The notes beneath the pieces are model-generated. The model did not search any database and had not been told where the DNA came from. It saw nothing but the letters and a program-made list of their open reading frames with translations. From IMG/VR virus record IMGVR_UViG_3300037418_003161, positions 172,420-236,419 of that record: DNA of 64,000 nt, one strand, 5' to 3'. This DNA is from a virus (taxonomy: Duplodnaviria; Heunggongvirae; Uroviricota; Caudoviricetes). Of this stretch, positions 24,200-56,362 are shown piece after piece. The translations under genes were made by a program, and so were the position numbers. Numbering within the stretch: position 1 is the stretch's first letter; every line of letters begins with the position of its first letter.

Positions 24200-26227
24200 A
24201 TGCCCGAATTTGATTTTGAAGACAAAGGGGATTCAAAAGGCCCTCAGAAAACTAAAGTAAAAAATTCTCCCACTCCCGTATTGGACAATTTCTCAAGGGA
24301 TTTAATCCGTTTGGCTGAACAAGGGAAATTAGACCCGGTAATTGGTCGGGATAAAGAAATTAACCGTATTGCCCAAATTCTTTCTCGAAGAAAAAAAAAC
24401 AATCCTATTATTTTGGGAGACCCCGGCATTGGAAAAACCGCAATTGTAGAAGGTTTGGCGATGAAAATCTTCCAAGGGGATTGTCCCAAAAATCTGCTGG
24501 AAAAACGCATTGTGGCTCTTGACCTGACAGCGGTGGTGGCCGGGACAAAATACCGGGGCCAGTTCGAAGAACGCATGAAAGCCATTTTGCAGGAACTCAA
24601 TGAAGTGGACAATGTGATTGTCTTCATTGATGAAATCCACACCATTTTGGGTACGGGTAACGCCTCCGGTTCATTGGACGCTTCCAATATCATGAAACCC
24701 GCATTGGCAAGGGGAGAAATCCAATGCATCGGTGCAACCACCTTGGATGAATATAGAGAAAATATTGAAAAGGATGGGGCTTTGGAAAGACGTTTTTTAA
24801 AGGTCATGGTAGATGCCCCAAGCAAGGAAGAAACGCTTCAGATTCTTCACATGCTGAAGGATAAGTATGAAAACTTCCACAAGGTTAGCTATACCGATGA
24901 AGCCCTGCAAGCCACGGTGGTATTGGCCGACCGCTACATCACCGATAAGGAGTTCCCGGACAAGGCATTTGACATCATTGATGAAGTGGGGGCGAAAAAA
25001 CAAATCAACACCAAATTTCCCAAAGAAATTGAAGACCTGAAAATGGAACTTCAGGAAATCAAGGATAGGAAGTTGGAGGTGGTGAAAAGCCAGAAATATG
25101 AAGAAGCGGCCCAACTGCGTGACCAAGAAAAGAAGGTTAAAGAGCGGCTGCAAGCTGAAAAAGACCGTTGGGAAAATGAACAAAAAGCCAACCGTTTACC
25201 TGTAACAGAAGATGACATTTACACCATTATTTCAGAAATTACCAAAATCCCGGTAGCCCGGATGAACAAGGATGAACAAAAATCCCTGCTACACTTGGAA
25301 GGTGATATGAAGGCTGAAGTAATTGGACAGGACGAGGCGGTGAATAAAATTGCCAAAGCCATCCGCAGAAACCGGGTGGGTATCAAAGACCATAACCGAC
25401 CCATTGGCTCGTTCATCTTTTTGGGGTCAACGGGGGTTGGTAAAACCCATATTGCCCGGACTCTCGCCAAGCTGAATTTTGGGTCGCCCGATGCCATGAT
25501 TCGGGTGGACATGAGTGAATACATGGAGAAACATGCGGTCTCCAAAATGATTGGTTCACCACCCGGTTATGTGGGTCACGATGAAGGTGGTCAGTTAACC
25601 GAACAAGTTAAAAACAAGCCCTATTCGGTTATCCTATTTGATGAGATTGAAAAAGCCCACCGGGACACTTTCAACATTCTGTTGCAAGTTCTGGACGAAG
25701 GTCATCTGACGGATTCCAGAGGGCGCAAGGTGAATTTTAAAAACACCATCATCATCATGACTTCCAATGTGGGAGCAAGAAAGGTGGAAGACTTTGGTAA
25801 CGGCATCGGATTTCAAAGCCAAGCCAAATTGGGACAGAGCAAGGAAATTGCCAAAACCATCATCAACAAGGAACTGAAAAATAAATTCGCCCCTGAATTT
25901 TTGAACCGGGTGGACGACATTGTGATGTTCAATTCTCTTTCTGAAGATAACATTAAGCAGATTGTAACCATTGAACTCAATAAGCTGAACAAACGCCTTA
26001 AAGAGAAGAATTACAACATCCATATGGATGATTCCGTGACAACCTATATTGCCAAAAATGGGTATGATGCCAAGTTTGGCGCACGTCCCATCAAACGTGC
26101 CATTCAGGATACCATTGAAGATTATTTGTCAGAAGAAATTCTAAAGGACAATATTAAAGAAGGTGTTGGGTACAACCTATCCATATCCGTAGAAGGTGAA
26201 GTAAAAATCAAAAAAGCCGGGAAATAA
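24200..26227 (+). CDS. ClpB/ClpC-like AAA+ chaperone ATPase lacking the N-terminal domain
   Basis: 675 aa. NBD1 Walker A GDPGIGKTAIVEGLA, Walker B VIVFIDEIH. Coiled-coil middle region (KEIEDLKMELQEIKDRK...QLRDQEKKVKERLQ). NBD2 Walker A LGSTGVGKTHIARTLA, Walker B ILFDEIEKAH, sensor TIIIMTSN, and the Clp C-terminal ARPIKRAIQ motif. The protein starts directly at QGKLDPVIGRDKEI (start of NBD1). Confidence 0.9.
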   Translation: MPEFDFEDKGDSKGPQKTKVKNSPTPVLDNFSRDLIRLAEQGKLDPVIGRDKEINRIAQILSRRKKNNPIILGDPGIGKTAIVEGLAMKIFQGDCPKNLLEKRIVALDLTAVVAGTKYRGQFEERMKAILQELNEVDNVIVFIDEIHTILGTGNASGSLDASNIMKPALARGEIQCIGATTLDEYRENIEKDGALERRFLKVMVDAPSKEETLQILHMLKDKYENFHKVSYTDEALQATVVLADRYITDKEFPDKAFDIIDEVGAKKQINTKFPKEIEDLKMELQEIKDRKLEVVKSQKYEEAAQLRDQEKKVKERLQAEKDRWENEQKANRLPVTEDDIYTIISEITKIPVARMNKDEQKSLLHLEGDMKAEVIGQDEAVNKIAKAIRRNRVGIKDHNRPIGSFIFLGSTGVGKTHIARTLAKLNFGSPDAMIRVDMSEYMEKHAVSKMIGSPPGYVGHDEGGQLTEQVKNKPYSVILFDEIEKAHRDTFNILLQVLDEGHLTDSRGRKVNFKNTIIIMTSNVGARKVEDFGNGIGFQSQAKLGQSKEIAKTIINKELKNKFAPEFLNRVDDIVMFNSLSEDNIKQIVTIELNKLNKRLKEKNYNIHMDDSVTTYIAKNGYDAKFGARPIKRAIQDTIEDYLSEEILKDNIKEGVGYNLSISVEGEVKIKKAGK

Positions 26228-30123: not shown

Positions 30124-30195
30124 TGCCCTGTGGTGTAACGGCAAGCATGTAACACTCTGAATGTTACGGAACAAGTTCGAATCTTGTCAGGGCGA
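30124..30195 (+). tRNA. tRNA-Gln (anticodon CTG)
   Basis: Hand-folded cloverleaf: acceptor TGCCCTG/CAGGGCG, anticodon stem TAACA/TGTTA, loop CTCTGAA, T-arm ACAAG-TTCGAAT-CTTGT. Confidence 0.7.
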
Positions 30196-30200
30196 CACAA

Positions 30201-30272
30201 TCCCATGTGGTGTAACGCTAACATCCCACCCTTTGAAGGTGCGAGTTTCAAGTTCGAGTCTTGACATGGGAA
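30201..30272 (+). tRNA. tRNA-Gln (anticodon TTG)
   Basis: Acceptor TCCCATG/CATGGGA (7 bp), anticodon loop CTTTGAA on a 4-bp stem plus one C-C mismatch, T-arm TCAAG-TTCGAGT-CTTGA. Confidence 0.6.
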
Positions 30273-30282
30273 CAAAAAAAAT

Positions 30283-30368
30283 GGTGGATTACTCAAGCGG
30301 TTAAGAGAGCGGTTTGCTAAACCGTACAGGGTTAAAATCCTGCGTGAGTTCGATTCTCACATCCACCG
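30283..30368 (+). tRNA. tRNA-Ser (anticodon GCT), class II
   Basis: Acceptor GGTGGAT/ATCCACC, D-arm CTC...GAG with long loop, anticodon stem GCGGT/ACCGT, loop TTGCTAA, long variable arm CAGGG...CCTG, T-arm GTGAG-TTCGATT-CTCAC. Confidence 0.7.
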
Positions 30369-30373
30369 CATAC

Positions 30374-30444
30374 GTAGGTTTGGTGTAACGGTAGCATGAC
30401 GCTCTCCAAAAGCGTTGGCGGGAGTTCGAATCTCTCAATCTGCG
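30374..30444 (+). tRNA. tRNA-Trp (anticodon CCA)
   Basis: Anticodon stem ACGCT/AGCGT, loop CTCCAAA, T-arm GGGAG-TTCGAAT-CTCTC; acceptor GTAGGTT/AATCTGC with two G-U pairs. Confidence 0.65.
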
Positions 30445-30448
30445 CAAT

Positions 30449-30706
30449 ATGAAAGGACAATTTGAAGAAATTATCAAGAAGCTCAAACTCAGAAGTGAGT
30501 TGATGAGCAAACGATATTCAAACATTGTTACTCCAAGCGGAATTAAGATTATACGGATTGTTCAGAGTCTTATTGACGAAGATGTTGTTCTAATTCATAT
30601 TAAATGGAGTTACAAAGACGGTATTCCCAATTTTGAGGAATTGCAGAAATACCAAAACGAATGTTTGAAATATTGGAATGTGAAGACTGAAATAAGACGA
30701 GTATAA
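30449..30706 (+). CDS. Hypothetical protein
   Basis: 85 aa ORF directly after the tRNA cluster. Confidence 0.35.
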   Translation: MKGQFEEIIKKLKLRSELMSKRYSNIVTPSGIKIIRIVQSLIDEDVVLIHIKWSYKDGIPNFEELQKYQNECLKYWNVKTEIRRV

Positions 30707-30743
30707 TACATTGGGGATGTAGCTCAAAGGAAGAGCGGCACTT

Positions 30744-30815
30744 TGTTAAAGTGAAGGTTGAGATATCGTAATTCTCCATCCCCGCAAACCCGAAACTTTT
30801 TCCCTATAGGGCAGT
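30744..30815 (+). tRNA. tRNA-Asn-like (anticodon GTT) with atypical T-arm; possible pseudogene
   Basis: Perfect acceptor GGGGATG/CATCCCC, D-arm GCTC/GAGC, anticodon loop TTGTTAA on a 4-bp stem. T-loop reads ATCGTAA and the T-stem has a T-T mismatch. Confidence 0.45.
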
Positions 30816-30869
30816 ATAGGGATAGATGCTGCCACATCGAAAAGAGGGAGTAGGGAAAGTTATTAACAT

Positions 30870-30941
30870 GGTGTATGAAGCTTTAAGGTGAAGCACTTGG
30901 TTGTGGGCCAAGGGAAGTCGGTTCGATACCGTCCTTACACC
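30870..30941 (+). tRNA. tRNA-His (anticodon GTG) with G-1
   Basis: Extra 5' G at 30870 opposite discriminator C (His hallmark). Acceptor GTGTATG/CTTACAC, anticodon stem CTTGG/CCAAG, loop TTGTGGG, T-loop TTCGATA. Confidence 0.7.
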
Positions 30942-30953
30942 CAAATTATTTTT

Positions 30954-31241
30954 ATGAATAAGGAACAGAAAATTAGATTGGCTGACATGCTTTTGGAATT
31001 TGTAAGCAACAATCAGGAAGACAGGGTGAATCTGCCCCGGATGGTTGGAACACTTACAAAGGCCCAAGGTCTGAACGGCTTTAAACGTGCTGAAATTGGA
31101 ACACCCGTTTTTGATATTGGTGACAAATATATGATAATGATTGAAAGCCTTGATGGTAATAGAAATGTTGAGGTAACTTATTATAAAGATACATTGAAAC
31201 CTGTCATTGAGTTTGATGGTGAAGCAAAAGTTATTTCATAA
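30954..31241 (+). CDS. Hypothetical protein
   Basis: ATG 30954 (MNKEQKIRLADML...) just after tRNA-His; ORF-track start 30888 lies inside the tRNA. Confidence 0.35.
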   Translation: MNKEQKIRLADMLLEFVSNNQEDRVNLPRMVGTLTKAQGLNGFKRAEIGTPVFDIGDKYMIMIESLDGNRNVEVTYYKDTLKPVIEFDGEAKVIS

Positions 31242-31278
31242 AAGGTAGACTTTCAACTTTGGAAGAACTTAATAATAA

Positions 31279-31357
31279 TGGCGTGTATAGAGCCATCCTG
31301 ATGAGATGGATATTCTTAGCGGTATTGAAAACGTGGGTTCGAATCCCACCACGCCAA
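31279..31357 (+). tRNA. Non-canonical tRNA-like gene (hairpin loop CTGATGA would give anticodon GAT, Ile)
   Basis: Perfect acceptor TGGCGTG/CACGCCA and T-arm GTGGG-TTCGAAT-CCCAC. The body has only one clean hairpin (CCATC-CTGATGA-GATGG) plus 5 nt before and 23 nt after it; no standard D-arm. Confidence 0.35.
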
Positions 31358-31371
31358 CCAAGGGAACAGGT

Positions 31372-31396
31372 AGTGGTTCGACTCCACTCAGGCATA
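31372..31396 (+). ncRNA. Isolated tRNA 3'-half-like element (T-arm AGTGG-TTCGACT-CCACT plus 7 nt)
   Basis: Canonical T-arm with no matching 5' acceptor half within 90 nt upstream. Confidence 0.3.
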
Positions 31397-31444
31397 GATT
31401 CTACGTTTGTAGCATTTGATGGTAGTGCAGTTCCCGCCTTTTAT

Positions 31445-31526
31445 GGCCCCGTAACAGCACCGTCTTCGAAACGGTACGCATTGTAATGGAAGGAAGATGT
31501 GAGTTCGACCCTCACCGGGGCTTCCA
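31445..31526 (+). tRNA. Non-canonical tRNA-like gene with encoded CCA (hairpin loop CTTCGAA would give anticodon TCG, Arg)
   Basis: Acceptor GGCCCCG/CGGGGCT, discriminator T, then CCA. T-arm GTGAG-TTCGACC-CTCAC. Body architecture mirrors 31279-31357: 5 nt, then hairpin ACCGT-CTTCGAA-ACGGT, then 23 nt. Confidence 0.35.
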
Positions 31527-31531
31527 AAGTT

Positions 31532-31556
31532 GTAGGTTCGAGTCCTACTCAGTCTG
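31532..31556 (+). ncRNA. Isolated tRNA 3'-half-like element (T-arm GTAGG-TTCGAGT-CCTAC plus 7 nt)
   Basis: Second T-arm-only element, immediately after the preceding tRNA-like gene and before a T-run. Confidence 0.3.
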
Positions 31557-31580
31557 CGATTTTTTATTTATCTTTGTTCC

Positions 31581-31940
31581 ATGAAAACCATTGTTGAACA
31601 AATGATTGAGGCCGGGTATAGGAAATTTACACCATCCTCATATTATCACGCCAAAGAAGCGTATCAGGCTCGCATCAGGGATGAAGTTGGAACTCGGTAT
31701 TTTATAACTTGTTACATTTACAATTTCAGTGATTTAGCACAGGAGCCACAAGAGGATAGTTACAGCTTTGAGGTTCAGTATGATAGTCACGGAAATCAAA
31801 CATTTGATGTGAGAAGGGGTGGGTGGTTTGGGCCGAATAAGTGGAACCATCCATATTTAACACTCCGGGAAATTGAAGATTTTTTCGGTCTCATTTGGGA
31901 AACAACTGGACGATTGTATTATGAAAAAGATGAATATTAA
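31581..31940 (+). CDS. Hypothetical protein
   Basis: 119 aa; ATG follows the promoter motif TTATTTATCTTTGTTCC. Confidence 0.45.
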   Translation: MKTIVEQMIEAGYRKFTPSSYYHAKEAYQARIRDEVGTRYFITCYIYNFSDLAQEPQEDSYSFEVQYDSHGNQTFDVRRGGWFGPNKWNHPYLTLREIEDFFGLIWETTGRLYYEKDEY

Positions 31941-31950
31941 ATTTATAAAG

Positions 31951-32035
31951 GGGTAGTTGGTCGAGTGGTCGATGGCGGCAGTCTGCAAAACTGTTGGGAG
32001 CAATCCCCGCACAGGTTCGAATCCTGTACTACCCT
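31951..32035 (+). tRNA. tRNA with Cys anticodon GCA and U73 but a class II (long variable arm) body
   Basis: Perfect acceptor GGGTAGT/ACTACCC, Ser-like D-arm GTC-GAGTGGTCGAT-GGC, anticodon stem GCAGT/ACTGT, loop CTGCAAA. 16-nt variable arm GGGA-GCAA-TCCC (GNRA loop). T-arm ACAGG-TTCGAAT-CCTGT, discriminator T. Confidence 0.6.
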
Positions 32036-32036
32036 C

Positions 32037-38207: not shown

Positions 38208-39164
38208 ATGTCAATTACATCCATCGTTGTTCTGGCAATAAGCGGAATAGTGGGCCTTGCGCTTATCGTTAGCTTATTTCAATCATTCTTCACTGTAAAA
38301 CAGGGAACTGTAGCTGTTGTTACACGGCTTGGCAAGTTTCATAAAATTTGTACTACCGGGCTGAATTTCAAAGTCCCTTATATTGATAGCCTCCTTGGGG
38401 TTATTTCCTTACAAAACAGGTCGGCCTCGGTTGCGTTTCAGTCCATAACTTCTGACCAAGCCAACGTGTATTTCAACGCTATGTTGTTGTATTCAGCCAC
38501 AAATAGTGACGAGGATACCATTAAAAACATCGCCTTCAAATTCCGCACTGAACAGGAGTTCGCCTCTACTCTGCAAAGAACCATTGAAGGAGCGGTACGG
38601 GCATACGTGGCAACCAAAAAACAAGCGGAGGTGCTTACCCTCAGACGAGAAATTGTTGACCATGTAAAGGCCGAATTGGATGGTACACTACACAGTTGGG
38701 GCTATCATCTGTCGGATTTACAAATCAATGATATCACATTTGACAAGGCTATCATGGATTCGATGAGCAAAGTAGTAGCCTCCAATAATCTAAAAGCCGC
38801 CGCAGAAAATGAAGGTCAGGCGTTGTATATTCAAAAGACCAAGGCTGCGGAAGCGGAAGGGCAAGCCATTAAAATTCAAGCCGAAGCCGAGGCTACTGCC
38901 GCCCAACTACGGGGACAAGGGGTTGCCAAGTTCCGGGAAGAAGTGGCGAAGGGCCTAACCCAATCGGCTGAAATGTTGCATTCCGCTAATATGGATACCA
39001 ACGTTATCATGTTCAGCATGTGGACGGAAGCCATCAAAAACTTTGCGGAATACGGTAAGGGGAATGTTATCTTTTTGGATGGTTCAGCCCAAGGGATGGA
39101 CAATACCCTAAAGCAAATCCAAGCCATGATACAATCAAAACAGGCCGACTATGTTAATAACTGA
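38208..39164 (+). CDS. SPFH/band-7 (stomatin/prohibitin/HflKC-like) membrane protein
   Basis: 318 aa. N-terminal TM helix, FTVKQGTVAVVTRLGKF core, and an Ala/Glu-rich coiled-coil tail (AEAEGQAIKIQAEAEATAAQLRGQG) typical of the family. Confidence 0.82.
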   Translation: MSITSIVVLAISGIVGLALIVSLFQSFFTVKQGTVAVVTRLGKFHKICTTGLNFKVPYIDSLLGVISLQNRSASVAFQSITSDQANVYFNAMLLYSATNSDEDTIKNIAFKFRTEQEFASTLQRTIEGAVRAYVATKKQAEVLTLRREIVDHVKAELDGTLHSWGYHLSDLQINDITFDKAIMDSMSKVVASNNLKAAAENEGQALYIQKTKAAEAEGQAIKIQAEAEATAAQLRGQGVAKFREEVAKGLTQSAEMLHSANMDTNVIMFSMWTEAIKNFAEYGKGNVIFLDGSAQGMDNTLKQIQAMIQSKQADYVNN

Positions 39165-39636
39165 TGATTTTGTTTTCTTCTATAAATCATTCTATTCGCA
39201 ATGGAAAATTGCGCCAGTAAGAATTGATGGAAGAACCTACAACTGCTCTGAACAATACATGATGCATAGGAAAGCCACTTTGTTTGAGGATTGGGAAACC
39301 GCAGATAAAATCATGAAAGCAGAACACCCAAGAGACCATCAGTCTCTTGGGCGTACTGTTAAAAATTTTAATCAGGAAGTATGGAACGCCAATGCAAGGG
39401 AAATTGTGTATCAGGCAAACCTAGCCAAGTATATGCAGCACGAAGATATGCGAAAAGAAATGCTGGCAACCGGGAATAGAAAATTTGTTGAAGCTTCCCC
39501 CACTGATATCATATGGGGTGTTGGTCTTGGTGAAAAAGACCCTTTAATCGTTGACCCCAAAAATTGGAGAGGAACAAACTGGTTGGGACAAGCATTGGAT
39601 AGAGTGAAAGCAACTTTGTTACAGACCAAGAATTAA
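39151..39636 (+). CDS. NADAR (YbiA/DUF1768) domain protein
   Basis: 161 aa. FFYKSFYSQW...IDGRTYNCSEQYMMHRKA...KFVEASPTDIIWGVGLG matches the YbiA/NADAR hallmarks (F.Y.S..SNF, SEQ(Y/F), E.SP.D..WG.G). Confidence 0.78.
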   Translation: MLITDDFVFFYKSFYSQWKIAPVRIDGRTYNCSEQYMMHRKATLFEDWETADKIMKAEHPRDHQSLGRTVKNFNQEVWNANAREIVYQANLAKYMQHEDMRKEMLATGNRKFVEASPTDIIWGVGLGEKDPLIVDPKNWRGTNWLGQALDRVKATLLQTKN

Positions 39637-39711: not shown

Positions 39712-40398
39712 ATGTCCGAAAACTTTTTCTCTAAGTACATTTGGAAAAGTACTGATGATGAATCTGAAAGTAAAGAAACTAAACTCCAACCGCCAAGTTT
39801 CTCCAAATCTCCGACAACCCAAGCTACCCCCGCAACCGTTGATTTTGTTCAACCCAAAACAGAGGTAGAACAACAGGCGTCAGCCGATATTCAAAAATAT
39901 AGACAACACATTAAAGACGTGTTGCGGCAAGCCAATCAAGACGGCCCGGATTATTTTGAATTTTCAGAAGCCCTTGAACGCAATCAGGCAATGAAGTTGG
40001 AGCGGCCTTTGACCTTCCAAATGACCTTCAATTCTCTTTTGGCCCTTGGTTTGACCAAGACAAAACTGGTGGATACAGCTAAGTATTACATCACCAAGCT
40101 GAGTGACGAACTGGCCAACTTCAAGGCTGACCGAGAAAGCCGCAAACAAAAAGAAGTAAGCGGAAGGGAAGCGGAAATTCAACAACTTCAACAAGCCAAT
40201 CAGCAAAAAGCAGAAGCCATCAAAAAGCTTACGGAAGAAATGAATGCCAACAACCAACGCATTGCCCAACTGACCAGTGAAAAGGCCACGGCTGAGCAAA
40301 AGATTGCCAATTCCACGGTTGTAATGGAAAGTGAAATCAACAACGAAATTAGTCGTATCAACGACGACATTCAGACTATTCAAACCTACATTCAATAA
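39712..40398 (+). CDS. Coiled-coil protein
   Basis: 228 aa, Gln/Glu/Lys-rich heptad repeats. Confidence 0.45.
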   Translation: MSENFFSKYIWKSTDDESESKETKLQPPSFSKSPTTQATPATVDFVQPKTEVEQQASADIQKYRQHIKDVLRQANQDGPDYFEFSEALERNQAMKLERPLTFQMTFNSLLALGLTKTKLVDTAKYYITKLSDELANFKADRESRKQKEVSGREAEIQQLQQANQQKAEAIKKLTEEMNANNQRIAQLTSEKATAEQKIANSTVVMESEINNEISRINDDIQTIQTYIQ

Positions 40399-40422
40399 TT
40401 TTTCTAACACAAAACAAAGAAA

Positions 40423-41466
40423 ATGTCACAAGTAGATTTAACCTCCTTAGAGGGGAAAGCCCTTGGTCTATGGAATAGGCCGGGGGGTAAATTAAAAGGT
40501 ATCGTCCTATGCCTTTTGGTGCTATTCGCCTTATATAAGGTAGGCCCAATGGCTTTGGATGCCATTGACAACGGAACTGATATCGTTTGGGGACTCACCA
40601 AATTTACATGGGCCTGTGTTGGTTTGGGAGCAACCCTGTTGGTTTTTTACCTATTGTTTTTCAGCCAAACCGTTCGTTCGATTGGGCTTGCACTGTGGGA
40701 TTTATTTATTGATTCCACTCTTGGCCAAATTGTCAAATATAAGCCGGAAGTACTCGCCAGAAGTGAAGTAAAGGCCAATTTTAAAGAAGTTGAAAAACTG
40801 GAAGCCTGTGTTGATGATGTTGCGGCCCAAGAGGAAAATATAAAAACCAAAAAAGCCGAACTGGAAAGCGAGATAAAGAATATTCAGGAAGAAAATGCAG
40901 CCTTTAGGAGACTAACTCCACAAGCTTTGGCCAATCGGCAACAAACCAAGGAAACCGTGGCAAGCAAGCTTGCCATTAATGAAAACAAGTTGGCGAACCT
41001 GAACCGATTTTTGGCTAAGTTGGTAAACATGGATAACATTATTACCGATGCCCGGATGAAATTAAATAAGCTTGCCACCTACGCCCGGACACAGGCAGAA
41101 ATTCACCGGGACAATGTGGAAATGGAAATCACGGAGTATAAATATACCGCAGCCGCCTCAAGTGCCATGCAGCGGTTTGCCAACGTTCTTGCCGGAAAAA
41201 ACGACAAATCCATGGTAGGTCAACTGGCTTTGATGCATATGCGTGATACCGCAGCAAAGAATTCTGCCGAGGTAAAACAAATTGTAAGACGAAGCAAAGA
41301 CCTTATTTCTTCTATTGACTTACAACAGGCCGTATATGATGCCAAAGCCTTTGAATATTTGGCTGAATACGACCAAAAATATCTTGGCACGTCAACGACA
41401 AAAGCCACCCCTGTAACCTTTACAAGTGTTGAGGAACGTCAGGCCAGCAACTACGATAATCTATAA
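40423..41466 (+). CDS. Membrane-anchored coiled-coil protein
   Basis: 347 aa, two N-terminal TM helices then an extended coiled coil. Confidence 0.5.
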   Translation: MSQVDLTSLEGKALGLWNRPGGKLKGIVLCLLVLFALYKVGPMALDAIDNGTDIVWGLTKFTWACVGLGATLLVFYLLFFSQTVRSIGLALWDLFIDSTLGQIVKYKPEVLARSEVKANFKEVEKLEACVDDVAAQEENIKTKKAELESEIKNIQEENAAFRRLTPQALANRQQTKETVASKLAINENKLANLNRFLAKLVNMDNIITDARMKLNKLATYARTQAEIHRDNVEMEITEYKYTAAASSAMQRFANVLAGKNDKSMVGQLALMHMRDTAAKNSAEVKQIVRRSKDLISSIDLQQAVYDAKAFEYLAEYDQKYLGTSTTKATPVTFTSVEERQASNYDNL

Positions 41467-41496
41467 TTTTTCTAACCAAAAAACAAATAAACAATT

Positions 41497-43293
41497 ATGC
41501 CTCTACAAACCCCCGCTAAAAATGCCTTAAAATTCATAGGCTTTATAGCACTGTTAGCAATCGTTGGCTTCGGAGTAGTAAAATACCGCAGCCGCCCAAG
41601 AGATGTAAAAGCCGCCATGGAAATTGGCTCGGTTCAACTCCCTGATGCCCCGGAAGCCTCCTTAAGCGGTGCATCTGCTGTCAAATTAAACTTCCCTTCT
41701 ACGGATGTATCTGTAAATGGGGGAACACGACTTACATGGTTTCAAATGGCGTGGAACAGCCAGTTGGCGACCCACTATGCCAACGGTGGTGTGAAAACTA
41801 CCAAAGGGTCGCTCTATGATAAGTATAAACTTCAGGTGGAAATCAAACGTCAGGATGATTGTAATAAATCCATTGCTGATTTGATTAAATTCGCTCAGGA
41901 TGTCAAAGAACGTGGAACGGATATTCCCGGTGTACTTTGCTCTTATATGGGAGATGGGATGCCAGCGTTCTTTGCTACCCTTCAAAAAGAACTCAGCAAA
42001 CTTGGCCCCGAATACCAAGCCATTGCTTTTGGGTTTACGCCCGGAAAATCTGATGGGGAAGACCAAGTGTTGGCCCCGGTGGAATGGAAGCGTGACCCCA
42101 AGGCTGCATTGGGTAAAACTGTTGCTTGTTACTTAAGGGATGGGGATATGAACATCCTTTTAAAATGGGCCGGAGACAATAACCTCAAGGTCAACCCCAA
42201 TGAAACCACGTATGATAGTTCAGCTATCAACCTTGTTGCCGCCAATGATTTCTTGGATGCTGCCAACAAATATATTACTGGCTACCGGGAAACAAGAAAG
42301 GTTGCAAGAAATGGAAAAACCACTGGTGAAACCATTGAAGTAGGGGTGGACGCTGTGGCAACATGGACTCCCGGCGATGTGAATGTTGCCAAAAAGAAAG
42401 GTGGGTTGATAACCCTTGTTTCTACCAAACAGTATTCCCAACAAATGCCCAACATTACCATCACCATAAAAAAATGGGCCGAGGCACACCGCAAAGACCT
42501 TCAAAATTTGATTTTGGCAACTGCACAGGCAGGAGACCAAGTGCGCTCTTATAATGACGCCAAGGAATTTGCAACCAACGTCTCTGCTAAAATATGGCAA
42601 GAACAGGATGGTGCGTATTGGTTAAAATATTACAACGGGGCGACTGAAAAAGATGCGCAAGGGTTAAATGTAAATTTGGGTGGTTCAAAAGTATTCAACC
42701 TAACCGATATGGCGAATGTCTTTGGCTTGGGTGCAGATGGAATTGACCGCTATAAGGCTGTATATACCACGTTTGGTGACATTCTTTCCAAAATGTATCC
42801 AGATATCATGCCCAAATATCCAAACTATGAATCAGTGGTGGATAAAAGCTACTTAGCGGCTGTCTTGGAAAGCGATGAAGGTAAAGCCTTGTTACAGGGT
42901 AAAGCACTCAATGATACCAAGACCTATTCTACCGATATCGTTGAAGAAACATCCAATAAATCCTACGCTATTCAGTTTGAAACGGGCAGTGCCAAGATTA
43001 AACCTGAATCCTATGCTCTGTTAAATGAAATCTTCAATTCGGCTGTGGTGGCTGAAAGTCTGAGTCTTGGAGTGTATGGTCATACCGACAACACTGGTAC
43101 GGATGAACAAAACCAAGCATTATCAGAAGCAAGGGCCGAGGCCGTTAAAACCTATCTCACCAAAAAGGGTATTGCCGAAAAGCGCATTATTACCAAGGGG
43201 TATGGTAGTTCACAACCTGTAGTGGGGGTTGATGTCAACAGCACATCGGGCCGGGCGCAGAACCGCAGGGTACAAATTGTATTGGGTGAATAA
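41497..43293 (+). CDS. Periplasmic substrate-binding-like protein fused to a C-terminal OmpA/MotB peptidoglycan-binding domain
   Basis: 598 aa. N-terminal signal/TM. C-terminus YGHTDNTGTDEQNQALSEARAEAVKTYLTKKGI...NRRVQIV is a clear OmpA_C motif. The central ~400 aa are assigned as binding-protein-like only from operon context with the permease and ATPase genes. Confidence 0.6.
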   Translation: MPLQTPAKNALKFIGFIALLAIVGFGVVKYRSRPRDVKAAMEIGSVQLPDAPEASLSGASAVKLNFPSTDVSVNGGTRLTWFQMAWNSQLATHYANGGVKTTKGSLYDKYKLQVEIKRQDDCNKSIADLIKFAQDVKERGTDIPGVLCSYMGDGMPAFFATLQKELSKLGPEYQAIAFGFTPGKSDGEDQVLAPVEWKRDPKAALGKTVACYLRDGDMNILLKWAGDNNLKVNPNETTYDSSAINLVAANDFLDAANKYITGYRETRKVARNGKTTGETIEVGVDAVATWTPGDVNVAKKKGGLITLVSTKQYSQQMPNITITIKKWAEAHRKDLQNLILATAQAGDQVRSYNDAKEFATNVSAKIWQEQDGAYWLKYYNGATEKDAQGLNVNLGGSKVFNLTDMANVFGLGADGIDRYKAVYTTFGDILSKMYPDIMPKYPNYESVVDKSYLAAVLESDEGKALLQGKALNDTKTYSTDIVEETSNKSYAIQFETGSAKIKPESYALLNEIFNSAVVAESLSLGVYGHTDNTGTDEQNQALSEARAEAVKTYLTKKGIAEKRIITKGYGSSQPVVGVDVNSTSGRAQNRRVQIVLGE

Positions 43294-43368
43294 GTCGTTT
43301 TTTGTGCTTAGAAAAGAGGGTCATCGGGGGGATAGTAAATATTCCCCCCACTCTCTAACTTAAAAAAC

Positions 43369-43599
43369 ATGAATCATTATTTTACATTCGGACAAGCCCA
43401 CATTAGCACCAAGGGTGTCAGCATGAAAGATTATTGGGTTCGGGTCATCGCCAGTAATGCGGAGGAAGCCAGAGAAAAATTTATAAAAAATTTTACTTCA
43501 ATTTACATGCGTAACGAAAACCAATGGTCTTTTCAATATGCGGAGAAGGCGTTCAACCCCTCTTTTTTCCCCAAAGGCGAATACCGTTTAATTGAGTAA
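43369..43599 (+). CDS. Hypothetical protein
   Basis: 76 aa ORF. Confidence 0.3.
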   Translation: MNHYFTFGQAHISTKGVSMKDYWVRVIASNAEEAREKFIKNFTSIYMRNENQWSFQYAEKAFNPSFFPKGEYRLIE

Positions 43600-44401
43600 A
43601 ATGAAACAACAAGCAATCGCAATCAGCCGGGGTCTCGTTACCCCTTTTGATAAAATCAACAAACAGGTCTTCTTGATGACTTTGTTGATTGAATGGTTTT
43701 TAATCCTAACGGTGTGGCAAATCAACGGGGGTGCTTTGATTCCAAAGCCACTGGCAATCTTGGAGAAACTCTTCAACGTATTTCAGACCGAAGATTTCAT
43801 CCAGAATTTGCTTACCAGTTTAATTTTGACGTTAAAGGCCATTTTCTTTGGTACAATCATATCCTTGGTTTTTGCCTATGGGTATAAAATCGGCGTATTA
43901 AAGCCTTTTGTGCAGTTCATAATTGTTTTAAGATATCTTCCCCTCACTGGAATCATTTTCATATTTACCCTGTTGACCAGTAATGGGGGAAACTTAAAAC
44001 TCATTCTTTTGTTATTTGGAATTGTTCCCTTTTTTGTTACTTCCATGGTATCGTTAATTGATGACATCAACCCGCAATTATACGACCTGTGTAAGACCCT
44101 GCGCATGAATCGGTGGCAAACCCTTAGAAGGGTGGTAATTGTCGGCCAATTCAATTATGTGTTTGAAGTGATGCGGCAGAACTTTGCCATTTGTTGGTTG
44201 ATGATAACCATGGTGGAAGGACTCTCCATGTCGGAAGGGGGAATTGGAACAATGCTGATTAAGCAAAATAAAACCTTGGAACTGGAATATGTTTTTGCCA
44301 TTCAAGTGACCCTGTTTTTGTTGGGTTTGGCCTTTGATGCCGGACTAAAGGCTCTGAGAAATTACCTGTTCAAATTTGTTCCACTTCAAAAAGCCAAATA
44401 A
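43592..44401 (+). CDS. ABC transporter permease (NitT/TauT-type, six TM)
   Basis: 269 aa, six hydrophobic helices; EAA-like cytoplasmic loop LRMNRWQTLRRVVIVGQ; ATGA overlap with the ATPase gene. Confidence 0.78.
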   Translation: MSKMKQQAIAISRGLVTPFDKINKQVFLMTLLIEWFLILTVWQINGGALIPKPLAILEKLFNVFQTEDFIQNLLTSLILTLKAIFFGTIISLVFAYGYKIGVLKPFVQFIIVLRYLPLTGIIFIFTLLTSNGGNLKLILLLFGIVPFFVTSMVSLIDDINPQLYDLCKTLRMNRWQTLRRVVIVGQFNYVFEVMRQNFAICWLMITMVEGLSMSEGGIGTMLIKQNKTLELEYVFAIQVTLFLLGLAFDAGLKALRNYLFKFVPLQKAK

Positions 44402-45210
44402 TGCCTTACGAAATAGCAGAAACACTTTTGAAAGCCGAGAACCTTTCAAAAACCTATGGCAACAAGCTTGTCATCCGGGATGTGTCTTTTGAAATCAAAA
44501 ACGTTACAAGACCGGGCCTGACCCAAGGTCAAATCCTGTCCCTTATCGGGGCATCGGGTGTGGGGAAATCCACTATCTTTCGGATGCTGGCCGGGCTGGA
44601 AACACCCACAAGCGGTCAAATAAAAGTGTGTATGGGACAAGGACAGGAGCTAAAACCTGTTCGTGAGGGAGATATGGGCGTGGTGTTTCAAAACTACATC
44701 ATGTTTGATGACCTGACCATCCGGGAGAACTTCAAGGTGGCATTGAAATATCGGCCCAACGCCAAAAACATTGATGCCAAAGCCTTTATTGATGCGTACT
44801 CAACGGAATTCAATCTGAGCCAACATTTGGATAAATACCCTTGTCAGCTTTCGGGGGGTCAACGCCAACGAGCGGCCATCATTGTTCAACTCTTAAATGG
44901 GTCTCCGTTTCTGCTGTTGGATGAACCCCTCTCCGGCTTGGATGTTCTGATGATTGATAAAATCACATCGCTTCTTGTCAAAATATCATTGGCCGACGAA
45001 TACCAAACCATCATCATTGTTTCCCACGATTTGGAGAACTGCCTTGCCATTTCTGATACGGCTTTCATCATTGGATTGGAAGCAGGGAAAGAAGGTGCAA
45101 TTCTGAAGGGAACAATTGACCTGATGCAAAGAGACTTGGCATGGCATCCTGATATTAAAGACCTTCCTCGTTTTAGGGATACACTAAAGGAAGTGAAGGC
45201 GATGCTATAA
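44401..45210 (+). CDS. ABC transporter ATP-binding protein
   Basis: 269 aa. Walker A GASGVGKST, signature LSGGQRQRAAI, Walker B LLLDEPLSGLD, H-loop IIVSHD. Confidence 0.9.
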   Translation: MPYEIAETLLKAENLSKTYGNKLVIRDVSFEIKNVTRPGLTQGQILSLIGASGVGKSTIFRMLAGLETPTSGQIKVCMGQGQELKPVREGDMGVVFQNYIMFDDLTIRENFKVALKYRPNAKNIDAKAFIDAYSTEFNLSQHLDKYPCQLSGGQRQRAAIIVQLLNGSPFLLLDEPLSGLDVLMIDKITSLLVKISLADEYQTIIIVSHDLENCLAISDTAFIIGLEAGKEGAILKGTIDLMQRDLAWHPDIKDLPRFRDTLKEVKAML

Positions 45211-45641: not shown

Positions 45642-46532
45642 ATGGGTGGAACTTTTTACAACCACGAAAGCAGAACAGTTCGAGCCTCTTCGTTGGGCTA
45701 TGCTACAAAGTCTGCAAGTGAAATATTCACACAGCAAAAAGAGCGCAAGATTCATGAAAGCATGAATCCAAAAGGTGTAAGAATCAGGGAATGTCGGGAT
45801 TCTGAAGCACATCCAAATGCTACACCAATCATGTTTTGGTTGGATGTTACAGGCTCAATGGGACATATTCCCCATCAACTGATAAAAGAAGGGCTTCCAA
45901 AATTAATGGGCAACCTCATTCAAAAAGGTATTCCTGATGCAGCCCTTTGTTTTGGTGCTGTTGGAGACCATGAGGTTGATAACTACCCTCTTCAAATCGG
46001 CCAGTTTGAAAGCGGGGATGAAGAGTTGGATATGTGGTTGACCCGTACCTATCTGGAAGGTGGTGGTGGAGGTAATGAAGGGGAAAGCTATTTGTTGGCG
46101 TACTACTTCGCAGCCTACCACACCGAAATGGATTCCTTAATTAAAAGAGGTAAGAAAGGGTTTCTCTTCACTGTTGGTGATGAGCCTTGTTTGAAAAGCC
46201 TCTCAATGAGTGCCGTTCGGGAAATCATGGGTGATACGGCGGTGGGTCAAACAACCTATTCTGTTGAAGAATTGCTTGCTGCTGCACAACAAAAATTCCA
46301 TGTTTATCATATCAATTTGATTCACGGCCACCGGGATGCCTCCGCAGATTGGATGCAGCGGTTGGGTCAAAACTGTATCAATGTCACCGAATACACCACC
46401 ATTCCTGATATGATAGCCAAAACTATCTTAAAGGAATTGGGTCGGGAAGAGCATGTGAGCCAACCATACACAGAGCAACCTTCTACCGGGACTGATACAA
46501 CTGGTGATTCACCATTAGAAATTTATCTGTAA
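45642..46532 (+). CDS. von Willebrand factor A (vWA) domain protein
   Basis: 296 aa. MIDAS-like FWLDVTGSMG (DxTGS); the GGGGGNEG loop follows. Confidence 0.65.
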   Translation: MGGTFYNHESRTVRASSLGYATKSASEIFTQQKERKIHESMNPKGVRIRECRDSEAHPNATPIMFWLDVTGSMGHIPHQLIKEGLPKLMGNLIQKGIPDAALCFGAVGDHEVDNYPLQIGQFESGDEELDMWLTRTYLEGGGGGNEGESYLLAYYFAAYHTEMDSLIKRGKKGFLFTVGDEPCLKSLSMSAVREIMGDTAVGQTTYSVEELLAAAQQKFHVYHINLIHGHRDASADWMQRLGQNCINVTEYTTIPDMIAKTILKELGREEHVSQPYTEQPSTGTDTTGDSPLEIYL

Positions 46533-46534
46533 GC

Positions 46535-47656
46535 ATGAAAGCAAGCATCGTTTTGGGACTTGGATTTGGAGACGAGGGAAAGGGTATAACAACCGACTTC
46601 CTCTGCTCCAATTCCGATAATCCCATTGTTGTAAGATTTTCAGGTGGACAACAAGCCGGACACACCGTTGTAAAAAATGGTGTCCGGCATATTCATTCCA
46701 GTTATGGAAGCGGCACTCTCCGGGGTGTTCCTTCTTATTTTAGTGAACACACCACTATGTATTTGAACAGCCTTGTTAATGAACGAGAAGTTCTTTTACA
46801 AAAAGGGATTACCCCGGAACTGTACCTACATCCGCTTACCATGGTAACAACACCTTATGATGTTGCGTATAACAGGCTGATGGAAGAGAAAATAAAGCAT
46901 GGGTCATGCGGGTTAGGTATTGCGGCCACCATGAAGCGCAACTTGGAAACCGGGTATAAATTGTATGCGGTGGATTTGAAATATCCGTCTGTTTATAAGC
47001 AAAAAATTGAAGCTATAAAAAAATACTATAGCGGTAAGGTAATGCTTCACGACCAACTGGACTATATTCGCTTGTATGATTATGCGGAAGATTATTTCTT
47101 TGAAAACCTTGAGCGAAAAGACCTTTTCCAAGTTGAGGACTATTCATGTTTGTATGGATATGACCACATCATTTTTGAAGGGTCGCAGGGAATATTATTG
47201 GATATGAATCATGGTTTTTTCCCCAATGTAACCTACGCCAACACCACAAGTAAAAATGTTTTGGAAATTTACAATAAGCTTTCAGGTCACAAAATACCAC
47301 CTCAAATCTATTATGTCACCCGGTGTTACCAAACACGGCATGGCCGGGGGTGGATGAGTAATGAACAGAACTTGGGCCTCGTCAACAATAAAAAGGAAAC
47401 CAATGTCACCAACAACTGGCAGGAGAATTTCCGGGTAGGAGAAATCGACTACGACCTGATTAATTATGCCTTGGACGTGGACAGTATTTATTCCAAGAAT
47501 CTTGTTAAAAAACTGGTGGTAACATGTCTTGACCAACGCCCCGGATTTCAGTTTGACTACACGAAACTCAAATACAGTTTCAAAAGGTATTTGGAATCCC
47601 GCTCAGATGAAACAAAATTAGTCCCTAATAAAAACCAGTATGCTGCAAGCCATTAA
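46535..47656 (+). CDS. purA: Adenylosuccinate synthetase-like protein (PurA family; short, archaeal/PurZ-sized)
   Basis: 373 aa. P-loop GLGFGDEGKGITTD and GGQQAGHTV match the PurA GDEGKGK and GNNAGHT motifs. Shorter than the ~430 aa bacterial PurA. Confidence 0.82.
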   Translation: MKASIVLGLGFGDEGKGITTDFLCSNSDNPIVVRFSGGQQAGHTVVKNGVRHIHSSYGSGTLRGVPSYFSEHTTMYLNSLVNEREVLLQKGITPELYLHPLTMVTTPYDVAYNRLMEEKIKHGSCGLGIAATMKRNLETGYKLYAVDLKYPSVYKQKIEAIKKYYSGKVMLHDQLDYIRLYDYAEDYFFENLERKDLFQVEDYSCLYGYDHIIFEGSQGILLDMNHGFFPNVTYANTTSKNVLEIYNKLSGHKIPPQIYYVTRCYQTRHGRGWMSNEQNLGLVNNKKETNVTNNWQENFRVGEIDYDLINYALDVDSIYSKNLVKKLVVTCLDQRPGFQFDYTKLKYSFKRYLESRSDETKLVPNKNQYAASH

Positions 47657-51028: not shown

Positions 51029-51110
51029 GTCGGTGTGGTGAAATTGGTAGACACACTACGCTCAAAACGTAACGGCATTGGCCATGTCAGTTCGAGTCTG
51101 ACCACCGACA
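51029..51110 (+). tRNA. tRNA-Leu (anticodon CAA), class II
   Basis: Acceptor GTCGGTG/CACCGAC, D-arm GTG/CAC, anticodon loop CTCAAAA, variable arm GGC-ATTG-GCC, T-arm GTCAG-TTCGAGT-CTGAC. Preceded by a terminator and a TTGACA-N17-TATATT element. Confidence 0.7.
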
Positions 51111-51111
51111 C

Positions 51112-51513
51112 ATGGATGACAATTTTGAAAAACTTCTGGAAGAGAAATTAAAAAAGAAAGGGCCTTTTTTAAGAATTGCTGTGGAGAGGCAATTAGCTTG
51201 GGAACTCTATTGTTCTTTATGCAATCAGGTGTGGATTGCCAAAGAATATGATGAAGCGGAGTTTAAGCAATGGCATGATGAATATTATGCTTTCAACAGC
51301 TTACTTGAACTTAAATTTCCCAAATATCTTTCCTATAGTTGGAGGGGTGCGGGAGCATTACTATCACGTTGTGTAGAAGGAACGAATGATTATATGAGTT
51401 TTTATTGTTGTAGGGACGAAGGAGGCATCGCTGAAGGAAAGATAACTGATAGAGCCAAACAATTGTGGGAAAGCATGGGATATAAATTGTTTGTAGATTT
51501 TTATAAAGATTAG
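51112..51513 (+). CDS. Hypothetical protein
   Basis: 133 aa ORF starting 1 nt after the tRNA. Confidence 0.4.
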   Translation: MDDNFEKLLEEKLKKKGPFLRIAVERQLAWELYCSLCNQVWIAKEYDEAEFKQWHDEYYAFNSLLELKFPKYLSYSWRGAGALLSRCVEGTNDYMSFYCCRDEGGIAEGKITDRAKQLWESMGYKLFVDFYKD

Positions 51514-51602
51514 AGAAGGGGTATTGTAATAATCAGGATGTCTCGTAAAAAGCGGGTCGTACAGGGCCATTGAAGTCCGAGTCAACCGCCATCCTGATAT
51601 AT

Positions 51603-51689
51603 GCGCTTGTGGTGTAACTGGAAGCCACGACAGGTTTAAGCCCTGTTCCGACATTGCATCGGGTGAAGGTTCGAGTCCTTTCAGGCGCA
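51603..51689 (+). tRNA. tRNA-Leu (anticodon TAA), class II
   Basis: Acceptor GCGCTTG/CAGGCGC, anticodon stem ACAGG/CCTGT, loop TTTAAGC, variable arm CCGA...TCGG, T-arm GAAGG-TTCGAGT-CCTTT. Confidence 0.7.
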
Positions 51690-51770
51690 CAAAAAGAGAG
51701 ATTTGGCGAGATATAAGAAGATTATATCCGGCCAAAAGTGGTAAAAAAAAAGTGAGTTTTGGCGAAATAT

Positions 51771-51852
51771 GGACACGTAGCAAAGCGGCAAAGTCGGAAG
51801 ACTGTAAATCTTCTCCCTCCGGGGTTCGTAGGTTCGAGTCCTACCGTGTCCA
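51771..51852 (+). tRNA. tRNA-Tyr (anticodon GTA), class II
   Basis: Acceptor GGACACG/CGTGTCC, anticodon stem GAAGA/TCTTC, loop CTGTAAA, variable arm CCC...GGG, T-arm GTAGG-TTCGAGT-CCTAC. Confidence 0.72.
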
Positions 51853-51863
51853 CTTATTATTAT

Positions 51864-51945
51864 GCCCTGATGGTGTAACTGGAAGCCACGTATGTCTTAG
51901 GAACATATGCCGTAAGGCGTGTCGGTTCGACCCCGACTCAGGGTA
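51864..51945 (+). tRNA. tRNA-Leu (anticodon TAG), class II
   Basis: Acceptor GCCCTGA/TCAGGGT, anticodon stem TATGT/ACATA, loop CTTAGGA, variable arm GCC-GTAA-GGC, T-arm GTCGG-TTCGACC-CCGAC. Confidence 0.72.
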
Positions 51946-51950
51946 CAAAT

Positions 51951-52038
51951 GGGGCTATGGTGTAACTGGCTAAACATCCCATCCTTACAAGATGGAGACG
52001 AGAAGTATTTAATCCCGGTTCGAGTCCGGGTGGCCCTA
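51951..52038 (+). tRNA. tRNA with Val anticodon TAC and an unusually long (18 nt) variable region
   Basis: Acceptor GGGGCTA/TGGCCCT, anticodon stem CCATC/GATGG (perfect), loop CTTACAA, T-arm CCCGG-TTCGAGT-CCGGG. 18 nt (AGACGAGAAGTATTTAAT) lie between the anticodon stem and T-stem with no clear helix. Confidence 0.5.
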
Positions 52039-52085
52039 CGATTGGTTTTTGCACGTTTTAAACTTAATGGAAAAATGTGTTTTAT

Positions 52086-52169
52086 AGGGTAGTAATCGGT
52101 AAATGGAAGCCGTCCACATTTGGGATGTGGGGTCATAGTACGCTGCAAGTTCGAGTCTTGTCTACCCTA
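52086..52169 (+). tRNA. tRNA-Pro (anticodon TGG) with extended 14-nt variable region
   Basis: Acceptor AGGGTAG/CTACCCT, anticodon stem CCACA/TGTGG, loop TTTGGGA, T-arm GCAAG-TTCGAGT-CTTGT, variable GGTCATAGTACGCT. Confidence 0.55.
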
Positions 52170-52248
52170 CGAAAGTGAACTTAAACAGTCAATCGAAGTT
52201 CTCATGGCCTACAGGGTGCGCTATAGATTGACGAACGAGGTGATGTAG

Positions 52249-52312
52249 CTCCAAAAGCGTAGAGCAGTCGGTTGAAGCCCGATGGTTGTTGGTTCGAGTC
52301 CAATCATCACCA
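52249..52312 (+). tRNA. tRNA-Phe (anticodon GAA)
   Basis: Acceptor GGTGATG/CATCACC, D-arm GCTC/GAGC, anticodon stem GTCGG/CCGAT, loop TTGAAGC, T-arm GTTGG-TTCGAGT-CCAAT. Confidence 0.72.
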
Positions 52313-52350
52313 CTAGTTGACAATATGATTTTTTTTGTGTATCATTTTAT

Positions 52351-56051: not shown

Positions 56052-56124
56052 TTCCCCTCATGGCGTAATGGTAGCGTTGCAGATTCTTACTCTGAAGGTC
56101 ATAGTTCGATTCTATGTGGGGGAA
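56052..56124 (+). tRNA. tRNA-Lys-like (anticodon CTT), weak D-arm, possible pseudogene; followed by a terminator hairpin
   Basis: Perfect T-arm CATAG-TTCGATT-CTATG. Acceptor TTCCCCT/TGGGGGA has 6 of 7 pairs. Anticodon stem CAGA/TCTG with loop TTCTTAC. The D-stem pairs poorly. Hairpin GGAACATA-aaa-TATGTTCC plus T7 at 56120-56147. Confidence 0.4.
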
Positions 56125-56159
56125 CATAAAATATGTTCCTTTTTTTATTGGAACAATAT

Positions 56160-56247
56160 GGGCGTATGGCGCAAAAGGTAGCGCATCTCACTTTTAATGA
56201 GAGGGGTAGACGTAAGTCCGTTCAGGGTTCGAATCCCTGTGCGCCCA
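56160..56247 (+). tRNA. tRNA-Lys (anticodon TTT) with a 20-nt variable arm
   Basis: Acceptor GGGCGTA/TGCGCCC, D-arm GCGC/GCGC, anticodon stem TCTCA/TGAGA (perfect), loop CTTTTAA, variable GGGGTAGACGTAAGTCCGTT (GAC-GTAA-GTC mini-helix), T-arm CAGGG-TTCGAAT-CCCTG. Confidence 0.6.
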
Positions 56248-56252
56248 CAACA

Positions 56253-56327
56253 GCCGTCTTAGCAAAATTTGGTATTGCTTCTGACTCTTAATCAGGAAAA
56301 AAATGAGTTCGATTCCCATAGGCGGCA
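56253..56327 (+). tRNA. tRNA-Lys (anticodon CTT)
   Basis: Acceptor GCCGTCT/AGGCGGC, D-arm GCAA/TTGC, anticodon stem TCTGA/TCAGG, loop CTCTTAA, T-arm ATGAG-TTCGATT-CCCAT (one mismatch). Confidence 0.65.
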
Positions 56328-56362
56328 CTTGACTTTATCGATTTACTTTCTTATAATTCTGC

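Follow-up and report, generated by a model that had tools for sequence, protein, structure and literature searches.

An intact five-gene Bacteroidota operon with a predicted ABC importer and an OmpA-fused binding protein on the genome of a huge phage

Comparative genomics of PspA proteins has revealed bacterial operons with the gene order PspA, SIG+PBPB+OmpA, permease, ABC (ATP-binding cassette) ATPase, SIG+TM+Snf7 (TM, transmembrane) and AAA+ (Ravi et al., mSystems 2024, PMC11237479). In the authors' proposal, OmpA attaches to peptidoglycan, the binding domain deals with the transported solute, and membrane remodelling is thereby linked to solute transport. In the same study PspA was repeatedly linked to band-7 proteins and to polyamine metabolism (PMC11237479). 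It is established that PspA-type proteins maintain the proton-motive force under envelope stress (PMC11237479, PMC7619361). Here, we analyze a DNA stretch of 64,000 nucleotides from a Caudoviricetes virus (IMG/VR record IMGVR_UViG_3300037418_003161, positions 172,420 to 236,419), referred to as the window. It contains a cassette of five genes at 39712-45210 (+ strand) which is a phage-borne member of the operon kind already noted in bacteria. The phage carriage is the new part: a literature search returned nothing specific on phage-encoded complete ABC importers or on the five-gene operon in phages.

By description, the cassette and the PspA/TM-Snf7 operons (PMC11237479; e.g., OGG56892.1 from Candidatus Handelsmanbacteria) share several properties. 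Both have a signal- or TM-anchored fusion of a periplasmic binding protein (PBP) with OmpA beside a permease and an ABC ATPase, which together with a membrane-anchored ESCRT-III-like protein is the combination by which this operon type is recognized. Both combine a membrane-anchored protein of the ESCRT-III superfamily with a second coiled-coil or PspA-type protein, the phage protein being a weak candidate for an ESCRT-III-like identity. The functional idea is the same, i.e., a peptidoglycan tether and solute transport tied to membrane remodelling. In the published operons the order is PspA, PBP-OmpA, permease, ATPase, TM-Snf7 and AAA+, whereas the cassette begins with the coiled-coil and TM genes. 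A two-domain AAA+ ATPase with an inactive N-terminal copy belongs to the published operons and is missing from the operon here. The binding domain is NMT1/NrtA-like by fold here and was labelled 'PBPB' there. Lastly, the operon described here is located on phage genomes.

Other known systems are more distant. The NitT/TauT importers (NrtABCD, CmpABCD, TauABC, SsuABC, ThiXYZ) have free or lipoprotein-anchored receptors, whereas the receptor here appears to be anchored in membrane and wall. The conserved residues are acidic and aromatic here and basic in the NitT/TauT importers, which also lack PspA-like operon partners. MotB/PomB, TssL and YiaD share with the phage protein an architecture in which a periplasmic module is placed between a membrane anchor at the N-terminus and an OmpA-like domain with the Asp/Arg motif at the C-terminus; in the phage protein, however, the periplasmic module is a two-lobe solute-binding protein for an ABC importer and not a stator plug or secretion anchor. 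Among phages, the pstS gene of cyanophages is a host nutrient-uptake gene; such phages supply the binding protein only and the host supplies permease and ATPase. Both cases have in common a host-derived transport component on a T4-like phage. Yet in contrast to pstS, the window has a complete transporter and, in addition, two membrane-associated partner proteins.

An intact Bacteroidota operon in huge phages

The window is bona fide phage DNA from a huge, T4-like phage. It encodes a T4-type major capsid protein, a portal and a large terminase, and has 17 tRNA genes. The identity of the capsid protein to those of deposited phages does not exceed 42%, and uncultured huge phages as well as phages of Flavobacterium are among the nearest records. 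When the cassette region was compared by blastn with 50,697 phage records, no match resulted.

The original prediction for this locus was a complete three-gene ABC importer. The three open reading frames (ORFs) concerned, 41497-43293 (598 aa), 43592/43601-44401 (269/266 aa) and 44401-45210 (269 aa), were confirmed on the + strand, and by their Pfam domains and the phage hallmarks the parts of the importer are present, intact and on a bona fide phage. The limits, however, had to be redrawn. The functional unit consists of five genes, 39712-45210, because the upstream genes 39712-40398 and 40423-41466 match the first two genes of a conserved Bacteroidota operon.

The operon of Dawidia soli illustrates this. 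Its gene order is 216 aa, 324 aa, 588 aa (OmpA), permease and ATPase. Gene 1 of the cassette (39712-40398, +), coding for a soluble coiled-coil protein of 228 aa, is homologous to the first gene of the operon, with 29% identity to the 216-aa protein at the syntenic position (E 3e-22). Gene 2 (40423-41466, +; 347 aa) is 24% identical to the 324-aa protein (E 2e-22), and the identity to the Dawidia counterparts is 50% for the permease and 46% for the ATPase. Full-length homologs of the binding protein, with 64-66% identity, are present in Chryseolinea, Dawidia, Ohtaekwangia, Chitinophaga (including C. pinensis), Ferruginibacter and other Bacteroidota, and a scan of species genomes yielded 214 close relatives. 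Using tblastn, the same five-gene order was observed in essentially all of 80 bacterial loci, with gene 1 syntenic in most. When the flanking ORFs of 81 bacterial loci were clustered, these five genes alone emerged as conserved (in 81, 78, 74, 73 and 72 loci); the coiled-coil family of gene 1 was present in 72 of the 81. The clustering disclosed neither a conserved regulator nor an AAA+ partner in the operon among the 81 loci, and the two-domain AAA+ ATPase is absent from the five-gene unit in these loci as well as in the phages. In gene set, order and host origin the cassette is an intact phage-borne copy of a self-contained five-gene Bacteroidota operon. It has host homologs, is placed between phage genes and is common to related phages, i.e., it has the properties of a host-derived phage auxiliary cassette.

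The fusion of the binding protein with OmpA is a feature of the host and not a phage invention, because it is already present across the Bacteroidota operons. It had been asked whether the host may lack this transporter; the evidence points in the opposite direction, as the operon is present in every one of the nearest relatives among the bacteria. This family of operons has a wide distribution among Bacteroidota from soil and freshwater. As a side observation, Parachryseolinea silvisoli (loci L024, L075) has two copies of the binding-protein gene, and for the L024 copy tblastn found no downstream permease and ATPase.

The cassette is not a singular occurrence among phages. Two contigs of 380-390 kb (L004, L005) possess the same flanks and all five genes with 47-72% amino-acid identity, and they too have a small insert before the permease. 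In the 462-kb phage LR756500.1 all five genes are found with ~33-38% identity, together with an insert of 91 aa at the same junction. The cassette is also found on the IMG/VR contig L089, where its identity is 45% and insertions are present. At least three diverged lineages of huge phages carry all five genes. The GC content of the cassette is 0.43 in the window, where the resident value is 0.39, and 0.27 in LR756500.1 with a resident value of 0.25; in the bacteria it is 0.51-0.54. The GC content of the cassette is adjusted to each phage genome. In a rough neighbour-joining tree the clade of the window branches outside the sampled bacterial radiation, while the copies of three IMG/VR contigs, which are candidate phages (L086-L088), nest among bacterial sequences. 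The position of the window clade outside the bacterial radiation and a GC content which tracks the resident genome indicate old acquisitions followed by long retention.

These data also bear on the notion of passenger DNA, host contamination or a chimeric assembly. The genes are clearly bacterial in origin with 64-66% identity to Bacteroidota, as such an explanation would have it. Yet both flanks are common to the related 380-390-kb phage contigs, all ORFs are intact with their motifs kept, and the divergence among the phage copies (47-72%) is like that of neighbouring phage genes (Band_7 72%, NADAR 62%). The GC content is ameliorated to that of the phage, and blastn detected no near-identical DNA in the phage records. 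We consider this explanation extremely improbable. The retention of all five genes in at least three diverged lineages suggests that the proteins work as a unit, from which the phage profits in the infected cell.

The OmpA-fused receptor and its predicted importer

Gene 3 (41497-43293, +) codes for the 598-aa binding protein with a C-terminal OmpA domain. The Pfam model PF00691 matches aa 494-577 with 77 bits and the conserved Asp/Arg motif for peptidoglycan binding is intact, in agreement with the original prediction of an OmpA_C domain. By these two properties the protein possesses an OmpA-like peptidoglycan-binding domain. The remainder of the protein was a different matter. Residues 1-490 were recognized neither by Pfam, NCBIfam or phmmer nor in two profile searches against PDB sequences. 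The NMT1 and NMT1_2 models and the NCBIfam models for NrtA, SsuA and TauA gave no match with the 598-aa protein of the window. NMT1_2 matched 6 of 61 members of the binding-protein family, all weakly (best E 0.0017), and a profile of the binding domain recovered no binding protein from PDB by sequence. Sequence searches returned nothing beyond OmpA; the fold was identified through structure prediction alone. The AlphaFold2 (AF2) model, built on an alignment of 41 sequences, has a pLDDT (predicted local distance difference test) of 77.7 and displays an N-terminal helix (5-32), an alpha/beta domain of two lobes (~77-470), a linker of low confidence (471-487) and OmpA_C. In the protein as a whole we place the binding domain at aa ~66-470 and OmpA_C at aa 489-597. 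The nearest folds to the binding domain are TauA, SsuA, NrtA, CmpC-CRD and ThiY. The periplasmic binding-protein fold, upon which the original prediction had been staked, is borne out by the predicted structure: according to the model gene 3 codes for an extracytoplasmic two-lobe substrate-binding protein of the NrtA/SsuA/TauA type. The N-terminal helix (aa ~12-31) probably is a TM/signal anchor to the inner membrane.

An exhaustive phmmer search with aa 41-490 against 1.84 billion representatives yielded 407 clusters, nearly all of ~590-640 aa. As the clusters are of almost uniform length, the binding-protein family is a compact one, and the OmpA fusion extends throughout it. Public labels for the protein are 'OmpA family protein' or 'OmpA-OmpF porin', and the binding-protein domain has been overlooked. 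Invariant throughout the family are W86, S105, M151, G183, S185, D189, N233, N245, W290, P292, T310, M317 and G395-G396; E188, D215, D217 and D294 are nearly invariant. No basic residue is invariant. In our reading of the secondary structure, most of the conserved residues are located on loops which follow the ends of beta-strands. The conserved Trp, Asp, Glu, Ser, Asn and Gly residues hint, at low confidence, at a cationic, zwitterionic or metal-associated ligand and not at a bare oxyanion such as nitrate.

Gene 4 (43601-44401, +) codes for the permease, 266 aa from the ATG at 43601 or 269 aa from the listed TTG at 43592; the N-terminus from the ATG aligns with the start of the L004 permease. 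BPD_transp_1 (PF00528) is recognized with 37 bits at a cutoff of 26.4, and an EAA-like coupling motif, DLCKTLRMNRWQ, is present at aa 165. Hydropathy shows five strong hydrophobic segments and a weaker one, which fits the six TM helices ascribed to this protein from the beginning. Gene 5 (44401-45210, +; 269 aa) codes for the ABC ATPase (ABC_tran, PF00005, 100 bits). Its motifs are all found, i.e., Walker A, Q-loop, LSGGQ, Walker B with the catalytic Glu, D-loop and H-loop. Judged from these signatures and, for the receptor, from the structural model, genes 3 to 5 would make up a type-I ABC importer of the binding-protein-dependent kind.

The original assignment to the NitT/TauT family could not be upheld by sequence. 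For binding protein and permease alike, hidden Markov models of this family, including the NMT1 models, remained below threshold. The permease scored 47 bits with SaoP (cutoff 295), 23.5 with NtrB (209), 22 with TauC (342) and 17 with SsuC (347); the equivalog models NtrB, TauC and SsuC did not reach threshold. This touches directly upon a nutrient-acquisition function, in which the auxiliary set would import nitrate, sulfonate, taurine, hydroxymethylpyrimidine (HMP) or a similar N or S compound for phage replication and the two upstream genes would be passengers. The nearest folds of the binding domain, TauA, SsuA, NrtA, CmpC-CRD and ThiY, agree with this function, and so do the best, if weak, NCBIfam matches of the permease, SaoP, NtrB, TauC and SsuC. 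Phage carriage of host uptake genes such as pstS is established, and phage 'ABC transporter' families already exist in PHROGs. However, in 72-78 of the 81 bacterial loci the importer genes are accompanied by the coiled-coil and PspA-like genes, and the phages have kept all five. The sequence models of characterized NitT/TauT proteins all stay below threshold, and the binding-protein family has no invariant basic residue; oxyanion-binding sites such as that of NrtA differ from such a pattern. For a binding protein that serves in scavenging, a double tether, to the membrane and to the wall, is unusual. In our view a role in nutrient acquisition is unlikely, and the PspA-like partners would go unnoticed if the locus were regarded simply as a set of nutrient genes.

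The PspA-like partner and the probable role of the unit

The proteins encoded by genes 1 and 2 are unrelated according to hhalign. For gene 1, searches in Pfam and PDB, including a profile of gene 1 against PDB, gave generic coiled-coil matches only. The AF2 model of the gene 2 protein shows two N-terminal TM helices (22-49, 54-80), a long helical hairpin (108-162/176-256) and then two further helices. In the gene 2 family, 36 of 39 members matched PF04012 (PspA_IM30) below threshold, the best with an E of 2.3e-4, and several of the Chitinophaga homologs carry the NCBI name 'PspA/IM30 family protein'. The gene 2 protein is a candidate for a divergent PspA/IM30-like protein of the ESCRT-III superfamily.

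With moderate confidence we favour the following view. The phage carries the intact five-gene operon and uses it as a module for maintenance of envelope and membrane energetics and not as a bulk nutrient scavenger. The receptor, tethered to the inner membrane via its N-terminal helix and to peptidoglycan via the OmpA-like domain, would capture a small periplasmic solute in the cleft between its lobes. It would hand the solute to the permease dimer, and the ATPase dimer would power the import. On the cytoplasmic side of this membrane the PspA-like protein may act in functional coupling with the import, and the phage could thereby keep the envelope and the membrane energetics of the infected cell going through a long infection. 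The linkage of five genes including one for a PspA/IM30-like protein argues against plain nutrient scavenging. The latter fits the strict five-gene linkage less well than a maintenance module does. The retention in the phages likewise narrows the hypotheses toward membrane and envelope homeostasis over growth nutrition.

The same linkage could be read differently. The tethered binding protein and the ABC unit may act as a sensor which reports on the periplasm, peptidoglycan or ligand flux and controls the assembly of the PspA-like protein, import being incidental. The strict operon linkage to the PspA-like protein, an operon without a regulator gene and a receptor mechanically coupled to membrane and wall are in line with such a role. 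On the other hand, the permease has an ordinary type-I importer domain with a coupling motif, the ATPase should be fully catalytic judging by its motifs, and in Pfam and NCBIfam searches none of the five proteins has a signalling domain. This makes a sensor distinctly improbable.

Another conceivable benefit is counter-defence or superinfection control, i.e., the cassette stabilizes the inner membrane against depolarizing abortive-infection effectors, or alters the envelope to exclude other phages. PspA-type proteins do keep the proton-motive force under envelope stress (PMC11237479, PMC7619361), and several lineages of huge phages have kept the cassette beside a Band_7/SPFH gene. Against this stand the results with PADLOC, which reported no defence or anti-defence signature and only generic OmpA/MotB (MotB/ZorB-type) and ABC ATPase similarity. 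Further, in Bacteroidota the operon is common on chromosomes and resembles a housekeeping unit, and no mobile or defence-island context was seen. We attach only a very small probability to counter-defence.

Several points weigh against a maintenance module. The PspA/IM30 assignment of gene 2 stays below threshold, and the 347-aa protein of the window itself has no PF04012 match. In a Foldseek search its model had no match at E<=1e-3; Vipp1 and CdvB2 appeared at E 0.1-0.4 among generic coiled coils. Operon linkage alone is no proof that import and membrane repair are coupled, and in every organism the operon is known from sequence only. Both flanks of the N-terminal helix of the binding protein are basic, and its orientation in the membrane is an inference. 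The low-confidence hint concerning the ligand derives from residue conservation. Finally, the inserted ORFs, one of 76 aa here and three between permease and ATPase in L004 and L005, show that tight translational coupling of all parts is dispensable for the phage.

A bolder extension of the maintenance module is tentative, and we regard it as somewhat doubtful. Huge Bacteroidota phages might carry a complete, self-sufficient machine for membrane maintenance, in which a wall-tethered ABC importer is coupled to an ESCRT-III/PspA-like protein with its coiled-coil partner and perhaps also to the SPFH/Band_7 protein. Over the course of a long infection it might keep the inner membrane sealed and energized or resist membrane-targeting abortive-infection effectors. 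If true, this would be the first virus-encoded PspA-coupled transporter and would offer a way into the function of this entire family of bacterial operons. In any case, the phage cassette is a compact and portable version of the operon for functional work.

Gene junctions, neighbouring genes and phage context

The junctions within the cassette differ from those originally described. Permease and ATPase were said to be coupled by ATGA; the junction reads TAATG, with an overlap of 1 nt between the permease stop and the ATPase start. Nor does the permease gene follow straight upon the binding-protein gene. A gap of 75 nt comes first, within which a GC-rich hairpin (GGGGGGATA...TATTCCCCCC, 43326-43349, +) can be read from the sequence. 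It is followed by a phage-specific ORF of 76 aa (43369-43599, +), the stop of which is separated from the permease start by a single base (TAA-A-ATG). The hairpin is not a canonical intrinsic terminator because it is without a T-run; the terminator scan did not call it, and the site counts at this position are at chance level. In the promoter and terminator scans overall the counts were at shuffle level, therefore transcript boundaries cannot be claimed.

The 76-aa ORF is conserved among the related phages, with 53% identity to the ORF at the same position in L004 and L005, and matches phrog_13997 (E 5e-9). It belongs to no family in Pfam, NCBIfam or PADLOC, and a counterpart is absent from the bacterial operons. 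A small ORF between the binding-protein and permease genes is a property of three phage lineages, with 76 aa in the window, 93 aa in L004 and 91 aa in L001. Between permease and ATPase, L004 (10920-12289) has three more ORFs (103, 88 and 261 aa; no Pfam family), and so does L005.

A gene for a flotillin-like Band_7/SPFH membrane protein (38208-39164, +) is located ~0.5 kb 5' of the cassette, as it is in the related phages, and is 72% identical in L004/L005. By analogy to the recurrent partnership of PspA and band-7 proteins in the literature, this SPFH gene may belong functionally with the cassette. The gene directly 5' of the cassette codes for a NADAR-domain protein (39151-39636, +; 62% identity in L004/L005). 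Near the cassette, L004/L005 (1-2787, 16940-17635) encode proteins like phosphoribosyl-pyrophosphate (PRPP) synthase and of the NAMPT/NAPRTase and SIR2 families, which suggests a set for NAD+ salvage or counter-defence. A ClpB-like gene (24200-26227, +) with two AAA+ domains was considered as the AAA+ partner of the operon and rejected: it is 14 kb off, has ordinary ClpB domains and matches phrog_4871 (E 3.5e-245). A pspA-like gene beside terD in Jug phages is in a different context. Directly 3' of the cassette is a gene for a 296-aa protein (45642-46532, +) which matches phrog_2971 (unknown function), followed by the ORF 46535-47656 (+), from its sequence a candidate gene for adenylosuccinate synthase (PurA).

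Elsewhere in the window, the T4-type portal gene (9952-13335, -; 1127 aa) is enlarged by an intein (Intein_splicing, aa ~360-808), which contains a segment like an HNH endonuclease (phrog_7545, aa 463-544). The tRNA genes are arranged in three clusters (30124-32036, 51029-52313 and 56054-56328), as is usual for huge phages, and include two for tRNA-Gln, three for tRNA-Leu and three for tRNA-Lys.

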